The position numbers and the translations under genes were made by a program. From NCBI GenBank assembly GCA_047601445.1, contig JASGJH010000001.1, positions 7,040,001 through 7,104,000 of the forward strand: a DNA stretch of 64,000 bases, read 5' to 3'. Positions 35,348 to 45,233 of this stretch are shown here, piece after piece. Position 1 is the stretch's first letter. Each line of letters starts with the position of its first letter. The notes under the pieces are model-generated. The model was not told the origin of the DNA, ran no database searches, and saw only the letters and a program-made list of their open reading frames with translations. The DNA is from Myxococcales bacterium (lineage in GTDB: Bacteria; Myxococcota_A; Polyangia; Polyangiales; DASUME01).

Positions 35348-35724
35348 GAACTCTCTCCACGCTACGCCGATGCTCGTTGAAATGTCCATGGGACGTCCAC
35401 CGCGATGCTGCGCGGAAGCGCTGCGTTGTTGTCTCGGGTGGTGAACGACAAGCTAGAACGCAGACATCAACCGGTGGCTTGCCGACCGGGGAGACTTGGG
35501 TAGCCCGGCCGAACGTCGCGGGCGCGTGAGACGCCGACCCCCAGCGAGCGAGACACTCCCCGCCAGATGCGTGACACCTGCGAGACAACTGACGTGAAAA
35601 CGCGAAAAAAGCCCATGTTTTGAACGAGTCCATCAGGCCGGCATACGCCTTGCTGTGTCCTTGCCATCCCGGCAGCATCCGTTGCTGCGATACGTTCAAG
35701 TCCAACGCCGGGGCCCCCTTCTCG

Positions 35725-36738
35725 ATGTCGTCTGTGCAGGTCTCGCCGTTGCTTCTCCGCTGTCTGCATGCCTGCCTTGTCGGCAGGGGGAATGCGTCCG
35801 CTCAGTTCTTGGCAGAAGTGCGCCCGCGACCCCCTCTCGCTTCGCGCGGTCTTTATCAGCCCATGGATTCTGTGGAGGTCGTGCGCGCCATACGGCTCGC
35901 GTACGCGCTCGCTCAGGACCCCGCACTGGCGCTTCAAGGCGGCCGCGACCTACCTGCCCATGTCCTCGGTCTTCCCGGCTTGCTCGTGGCGGAGGCGCCC
36001 ACCTTTCGAGCTGCCCTCACCCTGCTCGAGCGCTACTGGCCTCTGCTTTGCTCGCAGGGCCGCTGCGCCCTCGTCACCGAGGGCGATCACGCGCACTTCG
36101 TTCTCGATCTGGCCTCGGTCTCCACCAACGTTCGACGGTTCGCGTGTGAGTTTGCGTTCGCATTCTTGTTACAGGTGGGGCGCAGCTTCGTCGGCCGAAC
36201 GGCCTCCCCGAATCACGTGAGCTTTCCCGATCCGGCGCCCGACTACGTCGCGCAGGTCGCAGCGTGCTTCGAGTGCGACATGCACTTCGACCGGGCCCGG
36301 GCAGAGTTCGTCTTTCCCATGGAGTGGCTCGACGTTGCCCGCGCCTTCGCTGACGAGTCGTTGGTCGAGATACTGACGGAAGAGGCCGAAGCCCTACTTT
36401 CCCGCGTTCGGCACGTCAGTCCCATGCGCTCGCGCGTGTACGGCTTGCTCATGGCAGACCCGTCCCTCACGGAAGGTGATGCCAACGCCCTTGCCAAGAA
36501 GCTTGGGATCTCCACCAGCAGGATGCGACGCGCGCTCCAAGCCGAAGGCGAGACATTGATTGCCATCGCTGATGAGGCGCGCATCGATCGGGCTCGATCT
36601 CTCCTCGCCAGAAGCGAGTTGACGATCAAAGCGATCTCCGACCAACTCGGATACTCCCAGCCCAGCGCCTTCCACCGCGCGTTCAAGCGCAAAACGGGGA
36701 TGAGCCCGCTGCAGTTTCGTCGGCAAGACGCGTCGTAG
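35725..36738 (+). CDS. AraC family regulator
   Basis: C-terminal ISDQLGYSQPSAFHRAFKRKTGMSP; start uncertain. Confidence 0.88.
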   Translation: MSSVQVSPLLLRCLHACLVGRGNASAQFLAEVRPRPPLASRGLYQPMDSVEVVRAIRLAYALAQDPALALQGGRDLPAHVLGLPGLLVAEAPTFRAALTLLERYWPLLCSQGRCALVTEGDHAHFVLDLASVSTNVRRFACEFAFAFLLQVGRSFVGRTASPNHVSFPDPAPDYVAQVAACFECDMHFDRARAEFVFPMEWLDVARAFADESLVEILTEEAEALLSRVRHVSPMRSRVYGLLMADPSLTEGDANALAKKLGISTSRMRRALQAEGETLIAIADEARIDRARSLLARSELTIKAISDQLGYSQPSAFHRAFKRKTGMSPLQFRRQDAS

Positions 36739-36990
36739 TCGAGTGCGCTGCCTTGGAAGACAGCGACGGCAGCGCGATGCTCGAACGCATTCCGACGTTC
36801 TTCTTCTCGCGCGCGACACCGGGGTTCGTCGAACGAATCCGGATCACGTCGTGCCCGTTGCGGAGCGATGTTGCCTCGTGCGCAACGGGCGTTGCCTCGC
36901 CCGTAACAGTTCGAGCAGAGCGCACGACCGATGCGCTCCAAAGTAATTACTTCGATGGCCCAAGGTAAACGCCGAGGCGAGACCGCCCCG

Positions 36991-37006
36991 TGGCACGTGT
37001 CGTGCT
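36991..37006 (+). promoter_or_regulatory. sigma54 (-24/-12) promoter
   Basis: TGGCACGTGTCGTGCT, GG-N10-GC, about 20 nt upstream of the riboswitch. Confidence 0.75.
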
Positions 37007-37027
37007 TATAAATACTCCGAGAAATAA

Positions 37028-37110
37028 CTCTCGAAATGGCAAACCCCGGGTGACCGGGAGACGCAAAGCCACGGGCTCGCGAGAGCGAGTTGGTCGGGCT
37101 ACCGAAGGAG
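37028..37110 (+). ncRNA. cyclic di-GMP-I (GEMM) riboswitch
   Basis: CGAAATGGCAAAC-CCCGG-GTGA-CCGGG-AGACGCAAAGCC...GCTCGC-GAGA-GCGAGT...GGGCTACCGAA: GNRA-capped P2, GACGCAAAGC junction and TACCG 3' motif. Confidence 0.88.
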
Positions 37111-37118
37111 CAAAGCAA

Positions 37119-38093
37119 ATGAAGATGATGATTCCAGCTGTGATGGCCCTTGCGTTGGTGGGATGCGCGGCCGAGATCGCCGACGACGGTTCCGAGCTGG
37201 CCGAACAGGACATCGTGGGAGGCAACGGGCTTCCGAAGGGCAACGGGCTTCCGAAGGGCAACGGGCTTCCGAAGGGCAACGGGCTTCCGAAGGGCAACGG
37301 GCTTCCGAAGGGCAACGGCCTCGTCGAGGGCGCTGGCCTGAGCGGCGGCAACCCGGTCTCCCTCAAGAATGCCAACGGCACGCCCAACGCGCAGGGTTTC
37401 TTGAACGCGGGCAACGGCTTGCTCGGCTACGACAACAACCAGGGCACAGAATACGGCAACATGACGGCGCAGTACCTCGTCGAATGTGCACTGCCCACCG
37501 GCCACTGCGTTGACGTGGTGGACTACGCAGGCGTGCGGGCCACCTACTGCGGCAGCTTCAACCTGGCGCCTGAGTGGGAGTTCGGCGTGTGTGACACGGC
37601 CTGCCAGGAGCGAGTCAGTGCGTGTCTGCTCGCGCGTACCAACGCCAAGGGCGAGCACGTGACCCTCGAGTTCAGCGGTAAGTTCAAGAACTCTCAGGGC
37701 GTCAACCCGCTCGGCGCCCACGACGGCTCGCTCGGCTACACCAAGCAGGAGGCCACCTTCTACGGCAACCTGTTTACGGATCCACCTCAGGCCTACTTCT
37801 GCACCGGGAAGTCGCTGGATACCTGGGGCGCCCCGGAGTGGGGCTGGTTTGGCAAGGGCGCGCTGGGAACCCGCCTGTGCGGCGGTACTTTTGGCCTCTT
37901 GCCCTTCGTTTTCGCTTCCGGCGACGACTGCGAGCAGACGTACCACTACACTGGCGACTGCAACCGCGACTACAGCGTCTACCCCTTGTATAGGCAGGAC
38001 AAGTGCACGTGGGACGGCGCAGGGCAGACGGCCGTGAGCTGCATGGCTCAGGGCCAGACCTGGAACAATCCCATCACCACCTTCCTCAAGTGA
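37119..38093 (+). CDS. Cys-rich lipoprotein with N-terminal GNGLPK repeats
   Basis: AAGGAG RBS; LVGC lipobox; YLVECAL, LAPEW, CQERVSACLLARTN, QEATFYGNLF. Confidence 0.85.
   Translation: MKMMIPAVMALALVGCAAEIADDGSELAEQDIVGGNGLPKGNGLPKGNGLPKGNGLPKGNGLPKGNGLVEGAGLSGGNPVSLKNANGTPNAQGFLNAGNGLLGYDNNQGTEYGNMTAQYLVECALPTGHCVDVVDYAGVRATYCGSFNLAPEWEFGVCDTACQERVSACLLARTNAKGEHVTLEFSGKFKNSQGVNPLGAHDGSLGYTKQEATFYGNLFTDPPQAYFCTGKSLDTWGAPEWGWFGKGALGTRLCGGTFGLLPFVFASGDDCEQTYHYTGDCNRDYSVYPLYRQDKCTWDGAGQTAVSCMAQGQTWNNPITTFLK
37221..37322 (+). repeat. perfect 18-bp tandem repeat GGCAACGGGCTTCCGAAG x5 plus a partial unit
   Basis: Read directly; encodes (GNGLPK)5 GNGL. Confidence 0.97.
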
Positions 38094-38420: not shown

Positions 38421-39479
38421 ATGGGATTGCGACGCTCATTCACTCTGCTCGGTACGATGTTCCTCTTGAGTTCAGCTGGCTGTGGAGATGAGTCTGAAAG
38501 CGGGCCTCTCGATATCGGCCCGGACAGCAGCGTTGGCGACGGCGATGCCACAGGTGATGGTGATGGCGATGCCACTGGTGATGGTGATGGCGACACCACC
38601 GGCAATGGTGATGGCGATGGCGACGCCCCAGGTGATGGTGATGGCGACACCACCGGCAATGGTGACGGTGATGGTGATGGCGATGCCACTGGTGATGGCG
38701 ATGCATCCGGGTCCGTCTTTCCAGACGTGAAGGACTTTGCTGCCAAGGGCTCATTTTCCGTGACCACGGGGCCCAACCCGGCAGGTTGCACCATCTATCG
38801 TCCCAGCACGCTCGGCGAGATGGGTCGCAGGCACCCGGTGATCCTTTGGGGCAACGGTACCGGAACCACTCCGGTCGTCTACGATGGAGTGCTGAGGCAC
38901 TGGGCCAGCCATGGCTTCATCGCCGCGGCGGCCAACACCAGCAACGCGGGCACGGGCAAAGAGATGCTGGCCTGCCTCGACTACCTCACTCAGCAGAACG
39001 GAGCTGCCGGTAACCCGTACGCGGGCAAGGTCGATCTGGACCGTGTCGGGAGTTCGGGCCACTCGCAAGGAGGAGGAGGAGCGATCATGGCGGGCGCCGA
39101 TTCACGGGTCGACGTGAGCGCGCCCCTTCAGCCGTACATCAGCTTCATTCCCGGTGGAGGAGCGTTCAACAAGAGCTCCCTCGTCAATCAGACCGGCCCA
39201 ATGTTCCTCATGTCCGGCTCGGCTGACACCATCGCGGTACCCGCACAGCAGCAGCAGCCAGTGTTCGACGCCGTCACGGTTCCCATTTTCTGGGGCACGC
39301 TCGAGGGAGCGACTCACACCGGCACCGCGGTCGGCAACATCAACGGCTATCGCGGTCCCGCCACCGCGTGGTTTCGGCTGCATCTGATGAACGACCAGAC
39401 CGCACGCAGCACGTTCTACGGCTCGTCATGCGGGCTCTGCTCGGATCCGAAGTGGACGGTGAAGAAGAAGAACTTCTGA
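38421..39479 (+). CDS. alpha/beta-hydrolase lipoprotein (cutinase/polyesterase-like) with GD-repeat linker
   Basis: AGC lipobox; ILWGNGTG, GHSQGGGG, SGSADTI, GATH; terminal CGLC. Confidence 0.85.
   Translation: MGLRRSFTLLGTMFLLSSAGCGDESESGPLDIGPDSSVGDGDATGDGDGDATGDGDGDTTGNGDGDGDAPGDGDGDTTGNGDGDGDGDATGDGDASGSVFPDVKDFAAKGSFSVTTGPNPAGCTIYRPSTLGEMGRRHPVILWGNGTGTTPVVYDGVLRHWASHGFIAAAANTSNAGTGKEMLACLDYLTQQNGAAGNPYAGKVDLDRVGSSGHSQGGGGAIMAGADSRVDVSAPLQPYISFIPGGGAFNKSSLVNQTGPMFLMSGSADTIAVPAQQQQPVFDAVTVPIFWGTLEGATHTGTAVGNINGYRGPATAWFRLHLMNDQTARSTFYGSSCGLCSDPKWTVKKKNF
38535..38705 (+). repeat. GGTGAT-type low-complexity repeat encoding a (GD)n/T linker
   Basis: Read directly. Confidence 0.85.
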
Positions 39480-39499: not shown

Positions 39500-40939
39500 C
39501 TACCCTTTCTCCCGCATCTCCAACGGGTCGACCTGGAGCTGCTCGCACCAGCGGTAGATCTGTCGGCGATCCTTGAAGAAGTAAATTGCCACCTGGGCCA
39601 CGTTCCCCTTGTAGTGCCGCAGTACGCTCCGGAGCTGCTCGGCGGAAGGCTTGAGTCGCCGCGCTACACCCAGCACCCCCACGTCCCGGTCGAGCGCGGG
39701 TGCCGTGGCCAACTCGCCTGTGTCGTCCTGCTCGGGTGCTCGCGCTCTGATTAGGTCCGAGCGCGACCTTAGAGAGGCCGGAAGATGGCGGCACTCGAGT
39801 CGGCTGTCCGAGCTCGCGCTCGATGCCATGGTCGCCATGACCTGTTCGAGCTCACGAACGTTGAAGGGCCAGTCGTGGGTCAGCAGTACCTCCGCGACGT
39901 CGGGGCTGAACTCTAGCCTTGCCCGCGCGCGGGAATCGGCACGCGACCCGTGACCCGGTGATGACATGAGGAAACGCCTGGCCAGCTCGAGGATGTCTTC
40001 CTTGCGCTTGCGGAGAGGCGGAACCTCGATCACCGCCGCCCTCAGGCGCCCGTAGAGGTCGCCGCGAAACGCGCCCCGTGCCGCGCCGGCCTCGATGTCT
40101 ACATGGGTGGCAGCGATCACCCGGGCGTCTACCGAGTGGAACCTTCGACTCCCGACGCGCCGCACTTCACCCGTCGCGAGCACGCGGAGAAGGCTTACCT
40201 GGAGAGGCATGGGCATGTCGCCAATCTCATCCAGGAAGATGGTGCCGCCGTCGGCCTCGTCGAACAGGCCGCTGCGCTCTTGCAACGCCCCTGTGAATGC
40301 CCCCGCGTCGTGCCCGAACAGCTCACTTTCGATCAGGTTCGCTGGCAGCGCCCCACAGTTCACCGGGACCATGGCCCCCTTTCGACCACTTACGCGATGG
40401 AGCGCCCGCGCGACCAGCTCCTTCCCAACCCCCGTCTCGCCAAGGATGAGAACTGGGTGGTCGGCTGGAGCGAATTGCTCGATTTTGCGAAGAACGGCGA
40501 GTAGGCGAGGGCTCTGGCCCGTCAGCTCAGTCAGGCTCAGCCGGCCGCCCCCCATCAGGGCTGCGCGAGTCTCCTCGTCCAATGCCTGCAGTACGAAGAG
40601 ATGCGACCCGATGCGAATGACATCGCCATCGACGAGCTCGGCAGATTCGGTGAGCTGACCGTTGACCGCAACGCCATTCTTGCTCGCGAGATCGCGAATG
40701 CGGATGCCGAGCTCGCTAGCCTCGATGCAGGCGTGACTCCGTGAGGCCTTTGGATCGTGGAGAACCAGGGCATTGCCGTGCTCGACCTTGCGACCAATTA
40801 CAAGGGGCAACTGGTCCAACAACTGAACCTGGCCGACGCTGGTCGGTTCAGGTCCGTAGACCAACACGAGTCGAAACAGGTGAGGTGGCCGGCGTGTGGA
40901 CTCTCGATCCGGGCCCTCCGTGTCTACGCTGGAAGTCAT
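39500..40939 (-). CDS. FHA-domain sigma54-dependent enhancer-binding protein
   Basis: IGR..SRSH..SKNG FHA; GETGVGKE, ESELFGH, GAFTGA, FLDEIG, WPFNVREL; HTH. Confidence 0.93.
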   Translation of the reverse strand: MTSSVDTEGPDRESTRRPPHLFRLVLVYGPEPTSVGQVQLLDQLPLVIGRKVEHGNALVLHDPKASRSHACIEASELGIRIRDLASKNGVAVNGQLTESAELVDGDVIRIGSHLFVLQALDEETRAALMGGGRLSLTELTGQSPRLLAVLRKIEQFAPADHPVLILGETGVGKELVARALHRVSGRKGAMVPVNCGALPANLIESELFGHDAGAFTGALQERSGLFDEADGGTIFLDEIGDMPMPLQVSLLRVLATGEVRRVGSRRFHSVDARVIAATHVDIEAGAARGAFRGDLYGRLRAAVIEVPPLRKRKEDILELARRFLMSSPGHGSRADSRARARLEFSPDVAEVLLTHDWPFNVRELEQVMATMASSASSDSRLECRHLPASLRSRSDLIRARAPEQDDTGELATAPALDRDVGVLGVARRLKPSAEQLRSVLRHYKGNVAQVAIYFFKDRRQIYRWCEQLQVDPLEMREKG

Positions 40940-41084: not shown

Positions 41085-44000
41085 TTGGTGCTGCGCTGGT
41101 ACGATTCCTCCTCGGCACCCCCGATGAGTAGAACGAGCCGCAGTCATCCAGGAAGACGAAGAGGCGGGGGCGAGCGGGGATCGTCGGGCGAACCGGTGCA
41201 GCACGCTGCGGGAGCGCTGATCGACGGACGCTATCGCGTCGAGGGCCGTCTCGGAGCTGGCGGAATGGGCGTGGTCTACGCCGTTGGCGACGAAGGAACA
41301 GGCCAACGGGTCGCTCTCAAGCAGCTCAGTTCGGGGGCAGGAAGAGAGGCGCAGGAGCTCTTCGAGCAGGAGTATCGCGTCCTCGCGGGGCTGAGGCATG
41401 CCCGCATCGTGCGGGCCTATGACTTTGGCGTCGACCGAGGCGCGCCCTATTACACGATGACGCTGCTCAGCGGAGGCGACCTGAGTGCCGCGCCGCCCAT
41501 GCCGTGGCGACAAGTATGCGCGACACTCCGTGACGTGGCATCGGTCCTCGGCGTGCTGCACGCGCGCCGAATGGTCCATCGAGATATCAGCCCGAGGAAT
41601 CTATGGCGGACACTGGATGGCCGCATCCAGCTGCTGGATTTCGGCGCGATGGCCGATTTCGGTGTTCAGTCGACACGGATTGGCACAGCTCCCTTCATGC
41701 CGCCCGAGGCCGTGAAGAGCGAGGCTCTGGATGGGCGCTCGGACTTGTATGCGCTCGGCGCGCTCGGATACTGGCTCCTCACGACCACCCACGCTTATCG
41801 CGCACGGCGCATGGATGAACTGCCGGGGTTGTGGCTGCGCCCTCCCGCATCTCCATCGGACCTCGTCTCGATGATTGAAGGAGCAGATCGCAGCATCCCC
41901 AAGGAGCTCGACGACTTGTTGCTCGCCATGCTGGCCCTCGACGCCGATGCGCGGCCCGCGAATACCACGGAGGTCATTGACCGCCTCAACTACCTCGCAG
42001 ACCTCGTGCCCGAAGCTGAGGCCGAGGTTCTCCATGGTTACTTGGAAAGCAAGGCCTTCGTGGGGCGGCGCCGCGAGCTGAGCGTTCTGGATCGACAGTT
42101 CCGCCGAGCGGCGCAGGCGGGTCCCACGGCCTCCTTGGTGAGCGGGCCCGCGGGCAGTGGACGCAGTCGCTTGCTCGAGGAAGCGGCGATGGCCGCACGC
42201 GTCGAAGGTGCAGCGACTGTTGCGGTGGGACGCACGGCCGGACAAGAGCCATATGCCGGCGCGACCGCATTGGGCCTCGAACTGTTGCGTGCGATGCCGC
42301 GCCAAGCGCGGGAAGCCGCCGCCCCGATCATGACGGTGCTGTCGAGCGTCTCGGGACAGCTTGGCCAGGCGTTGCAAGGCGGTGCGATTGCAACCGCCCC
42401 CGCCGGCCCCTACGACCGCGGTGAGAAGCAGGCGGCACTGCAAAGCTGGATCGCGAGTCTGTCCCGCCAACGTACCTTGGTCATTCTCGTCGATGACGTC
42501 GACTTCCTCGACGAAGAGTCGCAGGCGCTGTTTGTCGCGCTGACGACGCTCGAGGCTGGGCACCGGCTTGCGCTGGTGGTATCGAGTTGCGCGGACTCGG
42601 TGCTCGCAGCGCGGTCGCCTGTGCACCACCTACAGAGCGCTTCCCGCACCCTTCCTCTCGCTCCGCTCAGCCCGGAGGAGACATTCGAGCTCTTGCGTTC
42701 CACGTTCAACGACGTCCCTTATCTGGAGAGGCTCGCCGCGCAGCTGCACGGCGCTTCACACGGCAACCCCCGACATTGCTTGATGCTCGCGGATCAGCTC
42801 GTGCATTTGAAGGTCATCGTCTATGCAGACGGTGCATTCCAGCTGCCGCGAGAGTTTCCGGAGATCGCGCTTCCCGAGGGCATTCACGACAGCATTCTCG
42901 GGACCATCGACCGTTTGTCGACATCGGCACGGCAGCTGGCTCGCCTGCTGTCGGTGCCCGATCACGGAACACTGACGCTTGCCATGATCATGGCCGCATC
43001 GGGACGAGATGTCGGTCAAGCGAACGCAAGCCTGGAGGAACTGATCAGGCGTCGCGTACTGCACGGCTCGGTCGCGGGCTACGGATTCGTGCACGCGGCC
43101 TCGCGCGAGAAGCTCTGCGGGGAGCTGTCGGATCTGGAGCGCAAACGGGTCCACCAGGCCATCGCTCAGCACCTGGAAGCCCAGGCGGGCGTCAGCGCTC
43201 TCGGAAAGCTGAGGGCGGGCGTCCACTGGCTGCACGCAGGAGACCTGACCCGCGCTGAACCTCTCATCTTCGAAGCGGGCCTGGCACACACGCAGGGCAT
43301 CCACGGCGAGGAGCTGCGCGTTGCGGCACCGATGTTCGCCGAGTGCGACCGTCTGTTCCGGGCGCTGGGCCGCGATGATCATGCGCTGTACTTGCCGCTC
43401 GGGGCGCTCGCGCTCGCCAGCTACTTCGCAGACCAACGATACTCTCAGGAGTACGGCGCGCGCGCCATCGCCGTGCTGAGCGACGGGATCGGGCTGACGC
43501 TGGCGGGCCGCCTCGAACGTTGGCTCGGAGCGAGGCTCGCGCTCATCGTCTCTTTGGTCGTTGCAGGGTTGCGCCTGCGTCGGCGGGACTACGCCCCCGA
43601 TCTCAAGCGTCTGATCTACGTGATGGTGGCCGCTGCCACCGCGATGGCCGGGCACGCAGGGGTGTGCGTCGATCCCGAAGCCGTGCGGCGCCACACAGCG
43701 GGGCTGCGCAAGCTGGGCACGCTCCGGAGCGCCGACGTGGCTCGTCTGTTGGCGGAGTTCAACGAGGCCATCGCGCTCAATGCGGAAGGCAAGAGCCACG
43801 CGGCTCAGACTCTGCTCAGCAAGGTGATCGCGGATCTGGAGACGCCGGACGCGCTGCCCACCATGGCAGCCGACGCACGCCGAAACTTCCTGGCCGGTGC
43901 GCTCGGTATCCATGCGGCGCACGACCTCGGATTGATCAGCGACAGATGTCTCTTCACTGCGGACAAGATGGAGAAATACGGCGGTGTCCATGCCGTCTGG

Positions 44001-45233
44001 GCGAGCCAGGTTCGTGCGATCTACTACGACAGCATCGGCCAGGCCGATCGTGCTGCGCACTTTCGTAGGGAGGTGGAGCTCGGGATCATCAGGCTCGGAA
44101 GTGCGTGGCAAGTCGATACGTGGCGCGCGCCGGTGCAGGTCCTCTCCTTCCCGGAAGACCCCTCCGCCTTCAGGCGGATGGCCGAGGAGATGGAGCGGCT
44201 CAGCGGTACGGCCCCCAGCTACGAGGCGTACGCGCGCTGGAACCGCGCAGCCTATCTGGTGTTGCGTGGGCGCTACGAAGACGCGCTCGCGCTGTATCGA
44301 GGAGAACAGGAGCCTAGGAACATCGTGGCGTCCATCCAGGCGTGCGGCTGGTTCGCCGCAGCCATGAATGGAGTCGGGGCTCATGAGCGTGCCCAGGCGT
44401 CCTGCGTGGCCGCGCTCGCGCGCATCGAGCCTGAAGATCGACACAGACCGGCTCATTCGATCCGACTGGAAGTGGAGTTGGCAGTCGCCGAGGCCGGGCT
44501 CGGACAGCACGAACGCGCTCATGAACGTGTCGACGCCCTGTTCGCGCGGCACGTGCCGCACACGGGACCCGTCGTGCGCGGTTACCTTCACAGCGGGCGC
44601 GCTCGCGTCTTCTTGTTGGCCGGCGACGTCGCGGGCTACGAGCAGGCGGTCGCCGCGGCCGCGCTGGCCTATGCGCCACTCAACGTCCCGTTCCTGCATG
44701 AACGCATCGCGGTGATGCGACGTATCGTGTCCGAACGCTCGGAAGGCGTCCCGCCGCACGAGGTCTCGCTGCACGACTCTCACCTGCTCACCCGCGTGCA
44801 GTTGCGCCTAGCCAGCGTGTCGACTGCTGACGACCGCGCGCGACACGATGCGGCATTGCTTGCCATGCTCGAGGTCGCGGGCACTGAGATCGGCTTCATC
44901 GTGCGCACGACGGGCGAGTGCGTGGCCCCCCGCGGTGTGACGCTGACACCAGAGGTCGTTTGCTGGGCCGAGGCACATCTCGCGGGTTCGTTTCGAGACG
45001 AAGCCACCGAGGTTCAGGAGACCACAGTCCCTTCCGAATCCGCTCGGCAAGCGGACACGCTCACCTGTGCCGGGGTCGCCTATCGTACTCACATCCTGCA
45101 GACCCGTGTCGGAGAGCTGCTCGGGGCACTCGTACTTGGCTCTGTCGCGGTCGTTCCTGCTCCCTTGCCGCGAAAGATCCTGGCCATGCTTGCGGAGTAT
45201 CTCGTGCCCGAACGACGTAGCGGTGCCGTGTAG
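41085..45233 (+). CDS. Ser/Thr kinase - AAA-like - helical-repeat protein
   Basis: GAGGMGVVY, VALK, HRDISPRN, DFG; FVGRRRE; GPAGSGRS; start uncertain. Confidence 0.88.
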   Translation: MVLRWYDSSSAPPMSRTSRSHPGRRRGGGERGSSGEPVQHAAGALIDGRYRVEGRLGAGGMGVVYAVGDEGTGQRVALKQLSSGAGREAQELFEQEYRVLAGLRHARIVRAYDFGVDRGAPYYTMTLLSGGDLSAAPPMPWRQVCATLRDVASVLGVLHARRMVHRDISPRNLWRTLDGRIQLLDFGAMADFGVQSTRIGTAPFMPPEAVKSEALDGRSDLYALGALGYWLLTTTHAYRARRMDELPGLWLRPPASPSDLVSMIEGADRSIPKELDDLLLAMLALDADARPANTTEVIDRLNYLADLVPEAEAEVLHGYLESKAFVGRRRELSVLDRQFRRAAQAGPTASLVSGPAGSGRSRLLEEAAMAARVEGAATVAVGRTAGQEPYAGATALGLELLRAMPRQAREAAAPIMTVLSSVSGQLGQALQGGAIATAPAGPYDRGEKQAALQSWIASLSRQRTLVILVDDVDFLDEESQALFVALTTLEAGHRLALVVSSCADSVLAARSPVHHLQSASRTLPLAPLSPEETFELLRSTFNDVPYLERLAAQLHGASHGNPRHCLMLADQLVHLKVIVYADGAFQLPREFPEIALPEGIHDSILGTIDRLSTSARQLARLLSVPDHGTLTLAMIMAASGRDVGQANASLEELIRRRVLHGSVAGYGFVHAASREKLCGELSDLERKRVHQAIAQHLEAQAGVSALGKLRAGVHWLHAGDLTRAEPLIFEAGLAHTQGIHGEELRVAAPMFAECDRLFRALGRDDHALYLPLGALALASYFADQRYSQEYGARAIAVLSDGIGLTLAGRLERWLGARLALIVSLVVAGLRLRRRDYAPDLKRLIYVMVAAATAMAGHAGVCVDPEAVRRHTAGLRKLGTLRSADVARLLAEFNEAIALNAEGKSHAAQTLLSKVIADLETPDALPTMAADARRNFLAGALGIHAAHDLGLISDRCLFTADKMEKYGGVHAVWASQVRAIYYDSIGQADRAAHFRREVELGIIRLGSAWQVDTWRAPVQVLSFPEDPSAFRRMAEEMERLSGTAPSYEAYARWNRAAYLVLRGRYEDALALYRGEQEPRNIVASIQACGWFAAAMNGVGAHERAQASCVAALARIEPEDRHRPAHSIRLEVELAVAEAGLGQHERAHERVDALFARHVPHTGPVVRGYLHSGRARVFLLAGDVAGYEQAVAAAALAYAPLNVPFLHERIAVMRRIVSERSEGVPPHEVSLHDSHLLTRVQLRLASVSTADDRARHDAALLAMLEVAGTEIGFIVRTTGECVAPRGVTLTPEVVCWAEAHLAGSFRDEATEVQETTVPSESARQADTLTCAGVAYRTHILQTRVGELLGALVLGSVAVVPAPLPRKILAMLAEYLVPERRSGAV

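Follow-up and report, generated by a model that had tools for sequence, protein, structure and literature searches.

Locus organization

The window, by which we mean the whole 64,000-nucleotide stretch analyzed here, comes from a 9.5-Mb genome with 66% GC (G000) and contains a gene for a Cys-rich lipoprotein of an uncharacterized myxobacterial family, preceded in order by a pair of palindromes, a sigma54-type promoter box and a c-di-GMP-I (GEMM-I) aptamer whose closing stem, P1, contains the Shine-Dalgarno (SD) sequence. Genes for an AraC protein, an FHA-EBP and a kinase lie nearby, and the positions of all of these features are collected in Table 1. A longer reading frame of 367 aa, which opens in the same frame at a GTG at 36990, spans both the promoter and the riboswitch and was rejected as the real start. 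Judged from the sequence, the gene probably stands behind three stacked controls, namely a predicted activator site, a predicted sigma54 promoter and a predicted c-di-GMP RNA switch.

Table 1. Features of the lipoprotein locus and its surroundings (positions in the window).
Feature	Position	Strand	Basis or comment
AraC gene	35620-36738
Candidate activator (EBP) site 1, palindrome TGTWGC-N7-GCWACA, 1 mismatch	36869-36887	.	conserved before family genes
Candidate activator site 2, 2 mismatches, 21 bp past site 1	36890-36908	.
AT-rich perfect 12-bp palindrome between activator sites and promoter	36941-36952	.	possible DNA-bending site
Sigma54-type -24/-12 box, GG at 36992-3, GC at 37004-5	36991-37007	+	sequence and positional conservation
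5′ leader hairpin CGAGA/UCUCG, rival partner of P1 5′ strand (predicted ligand-free state)	37018-37033	+
c-di-GMP-I (GEMM-I) aptamer	37028-37110	+	Rfam match, 57.9 bits
P1 5′ strand CUCUCG	37028-37033	+
P1 3′ strand CGAAGGAG	37103-37110	+
Shine-Dalgarno AAGGAG, inside P1 3′ strand, 8 nt 5′ of ATG	37105-37110	+	duplex with own 16S 3′ end
Lipoprotein gene P0001, 324 aa, ATG at 37119	37119-38093	+	uncharacterized myxobacterial family
Signal peptide, lipobox LVG-C16	37119-37166	+	by inspection
5.4 letter-perfect 18-bp repeats (GNGLPK)	37221-37318	+	local form of the family NGLxxx hexapeptide
Cys-rich folded core	37446-38090	+	invariant Y119, C123, G145, C169, G216, N217, R252, C296
FHA-EBP gene	39500-40939
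Kinase gene	41085-45233

The leader contains a GEMM-I aptamer

A complete GEMM-I aptamer with contact positions of the c-di-GMP type had been proposed in the initial annotation, and both proposals are borne out. The Rfam covariance model RF01051 matched positions 37028-37106 of the plus strand with a score of 57.9 bits (gathering cut-off 35; E 1e-08), over the full length of the model (1-87), and this was the sole Rfam match within the 64-kb window. The equivalents of the ligand-contacting residues are G20 (G at 37038), A47 (A at 37065) and C92 (C at 37102), and the P2 loop is a GNRA tetraloop (GUGA). When 22 copies were aligned, the core stems were found to covary, with 95% of cells paired and two-sided changes in 11 of 18 pairs; this level was reached in none of 500 shuffles, and slid controls scored far lower. 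Assignment to the c-di-GMP-I-GGC variant (RF03167) was rejected, since the window aptamer scores best on RF01051 and keeps A47 where the variant has a G. Relatives that score best on RF03167 likewise keep an A at this position. We regard the window aptamer as a genuine GEMM-I RNA of the c-di-GMP type.

Some relatives deviate from this pattern. The aptamer at positions 1044-1119 of locus L046 has a U at position 92 and lacks the top G of P1, and is possibly degenerate or of altered specificity; U92 likewise occurs in L167 and L175. At positions 521-583 of L070, a truncated aptamer with its own box is fused to unrelated sequence 5′ of an intact copy, and is a deletion remnant or a misassembly.

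Distribution of the riboswitch

The genome itself has three GEMM-I matches. The second copy precedes a 73%-identical paralog of the lipoprotein gene, with the same box, the same spacing and the same order of box, aptamer, SD and gene, and the third precedes an unrelated small lipoprotein. Among five further genomes of the genus, six of nine GEMM-I matches precede genes of the family, one of these six being truncated at 27 codons, so that its assignment rests on layout only. The same order of elements recurs in genomes G002, G003 and G006. When 68 of 78 family loci were scanned (ten had too little upstream DNA), an aptamer was present directly before the matched gene in 17, and five further aptamers preceded neighboring paralogs. 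We also searched 150 genomes sampled evenly across the class, of which 21 gave 33 RF01051 matches. Leaving out G000, 18 of 30 matches precede family genes, 15 by coordinates and three at loci cut by contig ends; among the 15, one scores 34.5 bits, just under the cut-off, and one lies on an apparent duplicate contig, while L179 was assigned to the family by its N-terminus only. All 18 come from one taxonomic family (f31), so that these kin are not independent. The other 12 aptamers lie before exported-looking ORFs (8) or where no ORF was called (4). Homologous genes thus also carry the riboswitch, whereas the idea that the protein family as a whole is doubly gated is not supported, as the riboswitch is present at only 17 of the 68 scanned loci. 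The riboswitch marks a minority of the gene family, yet in the class sample its main target is this very family.

Other associations of the aptamer were also seen. In three genomes of the genus, GEMM-I precedes a different lipoprotein family of 150 aa (L003, positions 1501-1588 of the minus strand, L035 and L038); these loci have a spacer of 43-47 nt, and no sigma54 box was seen at them. The non-family copies of the class sample (L165-L167, L169-L175, L177 and L178) also have the SD within P1, without the palindrome, and judged by eye mostly precede exported-looking proteins such as protease-like lipoproteins and barrel-like proteins.

The lipoprotein and its family

The protein had been described as a Cys-rich lipoprotein with GNGLPK repeats, and inspection agrees with this, with 13 Cys residues alongside the lipobox and the repeat array. 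The lipobox C16 is kept in at least 90% of 40 aligned family members. GNGLPK does not serve as a mark of the family, for which the repeating unit is NGLxxx. Its members share an architecture of a signal peptide with Cys, an (NGLxxx)n stretch, a conserved Cys-rich core and an optional tail. A search of representatives returned 1244 at E≤0.001, and 36 of the 151 class-sample genomes have family members; the related loci belong nearly all to Polyangia, Myxococcales or proteobacterial MAGs, plus Polyangium fumosum. A ricin-B lectin is fused to 4 of 40 members of A1 and to 10 of 31 of A2, and SUEL, CBM6 and CBM5/12 tails were each seen once among the examined members; the window protein itself has no lectin domain. 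Its GNGLPK array is letter-perfect, the copies in the paralog differ at synonymous sites, and the array is a recent expansion or homogenization whose length is probably unstable. In the same genome, a third family gene (G000:C1:1735804-1736397) is shortened and has a partial core, with no NGL repeats, riboswitch or box.

The core matched no Pfam or NCBIfam family, and its only sequence relative in the PDB was one weak low-complexity match. AlphaFold models the core with confidence (pLDDT mostly 85-97) and the repeats poorly (pLDDT<50). Two core models were compared with the PDB and BFVD with no clear fold match, which does not by itself make this a new fold: the best VIA matches had Z 3.0 (rmsd 4.3, 97 aligned) and Z 2.9 (rmsd 4.5, 93 aligned), and Foldseek gave no match with E below 0.3. 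Proteins with the ADYC domain (PF20032) resemble the family in being Cys-rich, secreted and of Myxococcota, and are the top neighbor of the core (0.92) by the Atlas language model. Homology to this domain was rejected, as the core has no ADYC motif and no Pfam match at E 10, hhalign gave a probability of 0.3% and local profile tests were not significant; PF20032 was also absent from 61 relatives, including G000. The ADYC-domain genes (L121-L150) are another large uncharacterized family, with up to 13 copies per genome and occurrence in 52 of 151 class genomes. GLTT-repeat proteins (PF01744) similarly have short GL-containing repeats behind a signal peptide, and this model matches 1 of 40 family members (E 2e-4) and 23% of one Atlas cluster; however, it has no match in the window protein and does not cover the conserved core.

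The product would be an exported, lipid-anchored, disulfide-rich envelope protein in which a flexible stalk of NGL repeats carries a folded core. Judging from the domain company of its relatives, its most likely business would be with glycans of the cell surface, as a binding or an acting protein. As to its role, we put an adhesin or matrix scaffold first, at roughly a little under an even chance, consider a glycan-acting enzyme possible, and give all other functions together a somewhat smaller share.

Predicted ribosome-binding site sequestration and the probable direction of the switch

The proposed pairing of CUCUCG with a P1 3′ strand that includes the SD can form in the window RNA, where AAGGAG occupies the end of that strand. 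We propose that, without ligand, the P1 5′ strand is engaged in the 5′ leader hairpin while the SD is accessible, and that bound c-di-GMP would stabilize P1, so that CUC pairs with the GAG of the SD and translation initiation drops. If the RNA regulates the gene at all, an OFF switch of this kind seems quite likely. Closing of P1 on ligand binding is established for the GEMM-I class. A coupling of ligand to P1 has been described in simulations (PMC6274999).

When the core of the window RNA was held folded, the SD opened at a cost of 0.32 kcal/mol in the free state and the 5′ hairpin formed; with a ligand-mimicking bonus of 8 kcal/mol on the top P1 pair, the CUCUCG:CGA..GAG pairing formed and the cost rose to 2.19 kcal/mol. 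The 5′ hairpin of the window was distinguished from leader shuffles (p 0.01), although at least 6 of 24 copies lack it; P1 of the window was no stronger than random 12-mers (p 0.47). Anchored pairing of P1 with the SD was then compared across 28 independent aptamers from 19 genomes, and cognate strands scored -7.99 versus -6.81 for permuted ones (19/20000). The same test gave 515/20000 for the family only and, with one aptamer per genome, a median p of 0.002 over the 19 genomes. At least 3 SD nucleotides are paired in 27 of the 28 aptamers; tested one by one, only 6 of the 28 give p<0.1. Compensatory changes between the strands are seen in the sets CUCUCG/CGAAGGAG, CCUUGUG/CUCAAGG and UUCCUUG/CAACGGGGG. 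An initial set of 24 aptamers, from which L046 was dropped as it has no top G, gave 534/20000 and a one-per-genome p of 0.064, and an unanchored duplex test was not significant (2843/20000). Covariation of P1 is expected of any GEMM-I aptamer; these data therefore show that P1 includes the SD, and not that translation is altered. The suggestion of a translational OFF switch is thus favored by the geometry and by the P1/SD covariation, whereas the family-wide folding tests were no better than shuffles: the bonus changed SD opening by 0.80 kcal/mol, as against 0.67 kcal/mol in shuffled leaders, so that the controls were not beaten, and the cost rose by more than 0.5 kcal/mol in 15 of 24 copies and fell in 3 of 24.

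Two other modes of action have to be weighed against the OFF switch. In the first, the RNA would be a translational ON switch, in which a free-state hairpin (37098-37111) covers the SD until the ligand takes C92/C93 and frees it; only the top two or three P1 pairs would form, the 5′ hairpin would stay shut and the 3′ end of P3 would fold back. This hairpin (-3.7 kcal/mol) does appear in the unconstrained MFE structure of the window RNA, several distant copies keep a 5′ hairpin of -10 to -15 kcal/mol despite the ligand bonus, and the three copies noted above open the SD more easily with it. However, at merely -3.7 kcal/mol the hairpin must open the base of P3, the free SD of the window is open when the core is held, and compensatory changes hold the pairing of the 5′ strand with the SD across 19 genomes; we consider an ON switch rather unlikely. 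The second possibility, that the aptamer acts mainly through RNA stability or processing, or yields a stable leader RNA, with the SD overlap being secondary, would fit the weak thermodynamic switching family-wide. It also has precedents in Vc2, which is reported to control an upstream sRNA by stability (10.1101/617340), and, for a leader RNA, in the merRNA described in Bdellovibrio (PMC3627812). But nearly all copies have the start codon 12-20 nt after C93 and the SD within P1, and a spacer for another expression platform is absent, which makes this mode unlikely as well.

The probable ligand

Residues G20 and C92 are described as contacts of the c-di-GMP type (10.1101/617340, PMC7288161), and c-di-GMP is the likely ligand of the window aptamer because the genome has no Hypr-type cyclase. 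Hypr GGDEF enzymes are reported to have a Ser in place of an Asp nine residues after a conserved Asn (PMC6456294). In G000, where 24 GGDEF matches were inspected, the Ser-type signature was found 0 times, as compared with 18 matches to the Asp-type pattern. An A20, the mark of the alternative ligand, is absent from this genome, where the window aptamer and both other copies have G20.

The wider set of relatives is more mixed, and on this rests the alternative that the effective ligand is 3′,3′-cGAMP, or both dinucleotides, and not c-di-GMP alone. Of 41 family-linked aptamers, 28 have G at position 20, 6 have A and 7 have C, so that 13 of the 41 depart from G, and the residue varies within single genomes: the four paralogs of G108 (L153, L159, L164 and L176) have A, A, G and C, and those of G185 (L154, L155, L163 and L168) have C, C, C and A. 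All 12 non-family aptamers have a G. Ser-type, Hypr-like GGDEF domains were confirmed in 9 of 9 tested genomes of f31, as well as in three of the five that were reached through loci, and G20 aptamers can be promiscuous. Against this alternative, the window aptamer combines G20 with C92, and the Ser-type signature occurs in none of six genomes of its genus: the window's own genome and four of the five others lack it, and the single pattern match in the fifth is not a GGDEF. We therefore consider cGAMP sensing at this locus improbable. A fine correlation between position 20 and Hypr enzymes was rejected, as Ser-type GGDEFs also occur where only G20 copies were seen; no Ser-type match was found in the genomes of L048 (A20) and L044 (C20), whose completeness is not given. 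The link of A20 and C20 to Hypr enzymes holds at the level of the clade only.

The promoter and the upstream palindromes

The promoter box, TGGCAC-GTGTC-GTGCTT, has the GG-N10-GC form of the -24/-12 sigma54 consensus, and its predicted start lies near 37017. The genome has rpoN (one PF04552 match, E 2e-63). The sigma54 promoter of the initial annotation holds in that the box is there and is conserved in position, but in the window the box alone is at chance level (6 matches with 1 mismatch versus 5.4 expected), as is the palindrome alone (4 versus 4.95); support for both therefore rests on their conservation. A strict form of the box, expected in 0.9% of cases per 40 nt, was present at 22 of the 25 riboswitch loci, which helped to shape the pattern, and lies there 38-78 nt 5′ of position 20. 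Out of sample, it was found before 22 of 49 family genes that lack the riboswitch and in none of 49 control windows; for new family loci the count was 11 of 16, versus 1 of 12 for non-family riboswitch loci.

The tandem palindrome (36869 and 36890) had been missed earlier. TGTWGC-N7-GCWACA recurs 5′ of the box, often doubled at a spacing of 21 bp, and with up to 2 mismatches it is present in 24 of 24 riboswitch loci, a circular count from which L043 was left out as too short. It was found before 29 of 49 riboswitch-less family genes versus 1 of 49 controls, and in 14 of 16 new family loci versus 0 of 12 non-family riboswitch loci. With a matrix built without the window's own genome, the window promoter ranked first (34.9) and that of the paralog second (30.7) among 4235 boxes, the next-best box scoring 20.0. 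The tandem palindrome is probably the site of an activator (EBP), for which it is our candidate. Since the box and the palindrome are wider-spread than the riboswitch, we assign both to the gene family and regard the riboswitch as an add-on.

Three further occurrences of the palindrome were seen. The third-ranked promoter by the matrix (G000:C1:4205976) lies before a gene for an 808-aa lipoprotein, a possible further member of the regulon. At G000:C1:515866, a near-perfect copy lies 5′ of a divergent subtilase-like gene adjoining the paralog, and a sigma54 box was not found there. A lone copy with 1 mismatch at 1018-1036 of the window, at the 3′ end of the gene at 1011-2198, is probably due to chance.

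The AraC, FHA-EBP and kinase genes noted earlier are indeed present beside the lipoprotein gene, but none of them recurs in nine homologue regions of 9-20 kb, and AraC and EBP gave 0 matches in 100 short loci. The kinase was rejected as a part of the system, a kinase being present in 25-30% of 20-kb bins drawn at random from the genome, and 73 flanking ORFs spread over many unrelated families. By this comparison the three neighbors are incidental. A gene for a PETase-like alpha/beta hydrolase with a GDGD low-complexity linker lies downstream of the lipoprotein gene (38421-39479), and a homologue of it adjoins one other family locus. That the palindromes and box bind a sigma54-independent regulator or repressor, or that the neighboring AraC or FHA-EBP regulates the window copy, is very improbable: the genome has about 49 EBP-like and 18 AraC-like matches and the FHA-EBP gene lies 1.4 kb downstream of the lipoprotein gene, but the sites stand 71-135 nt before a GG-N10-GC box and are often spaced by 21 bp, an arrangement typical of EBPs, and no EBP or AraC gene was found in the nine homologue regions, the surroundings of the genome's own paralog or the 100 short loci.

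A proposed model and its implications

These observations provide the basis for a model in which the locus is a single-gene unit with AND-NOT logic. A sigma54 activator encoded elsewhere would bind the tandem TGTWGC-N7-GCWACA sites and open the promoter, with transcription starting near 37017. The leader that follows is a c-di-GMP-I aptamer with the SD as its P1 3′ strand, and production of the protein would require both an active activator and a low level of c-di-GMP. Taken whole, with activator, sigma54, a translational OFF riboswitch and a glycan-linked envelope lipoprotein, this is our best explanation, and we hold it to be probable, if by no great distance.

The feature stands up, is conserved and has more layers than first noted. 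Its elements are individually all of known kinds, and the novelty lies in how they are combined, in the activator motif and target family, and in the natural series of G, A and C at position 20. No match of TGTWGC-N7-GCWACA to a described EBP appeared among the best 20 of 52 results of our literature search, and our literature searches gave no paper on the gene family, on a myxobacterial leader combining sigma54 with GEMM-I, or on the palindrome; the hit tables of the original GEMM and GEMM-Ib papers may nonetheless include a case from myxobacteria. A larger reading, which we put forward tentatively and consider doubtful, is that of an undescribed class-wide regulon, in which one EBP with sigma54 would serve a multigene surface lipoprotein family of new fold, and a minimal GEMM-I riboswitch, with the ribosome site as its P1, would sort the paralogs by second messenger. 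If so, the balance of c-di-GMP and cGAMP could decide which paralog a cell shows on its surface, and there would be natural C20 aptamers of distinct specificity.

c-di-GMP steers surface behavior in myxobacteria, and to our knowledge its known effectors there are proteins. The locus offers a concrete predicted RNA effector together with its apparent main target family in the sampled uncultured relatives (18 of 30 matches). Its 130-nt leader is a compact predicted gate for transcription AND NOT ligand, the palindrome is a handle with which to find a new EBP, and the G, A and C variants at position 20, in one sequence background, form a test set for cyclic-dinucleotide selectivity. The protein core adds a large family with no described function or fold match.

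Comparison with known systems

In myxobacterial sigma54 promoters driven by EBPs, a -24/-12 box is preceded at about 100 bp by tandem sites, a layout shared by the window locus, which differs in having a riboswitch layered on top. The GEMM-Ib cGAMP riboswitches of Geobacter, which occur with the Hypr GGDEF enzyme GacA, share the fold and the deltaproteobacterial lineage, and are likewise described before surface and lipoprotein genes (PMC6456294); relatives of the window locus also have A20 copies and Ser-type GGDEFs. As described, however, they are ON switches at the transcript level, with a terminator reported for pgcA, whereas the window aptamer has G20, its genome no Hypr signature, and the switch is predicted to be OFF at the SD. 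Vc2, before tfoY in Vibrio cholerae (RF01051), has the same aptamer with G20 and C92 as its ligand contacts and is, like the predicted switch of the window, of the OFF type, with translation as its presumed point of action (10.1101/617340). In Vc2, the RBS is reported to be hidden by an anti-RBS downstream of the aptamer. In the window, by contrast, the SD itself makes up the P1 3′ strand and a separate expression platform is absent; the leader begins at a sigma54-type promoter, about 10 nt before the aptamer.
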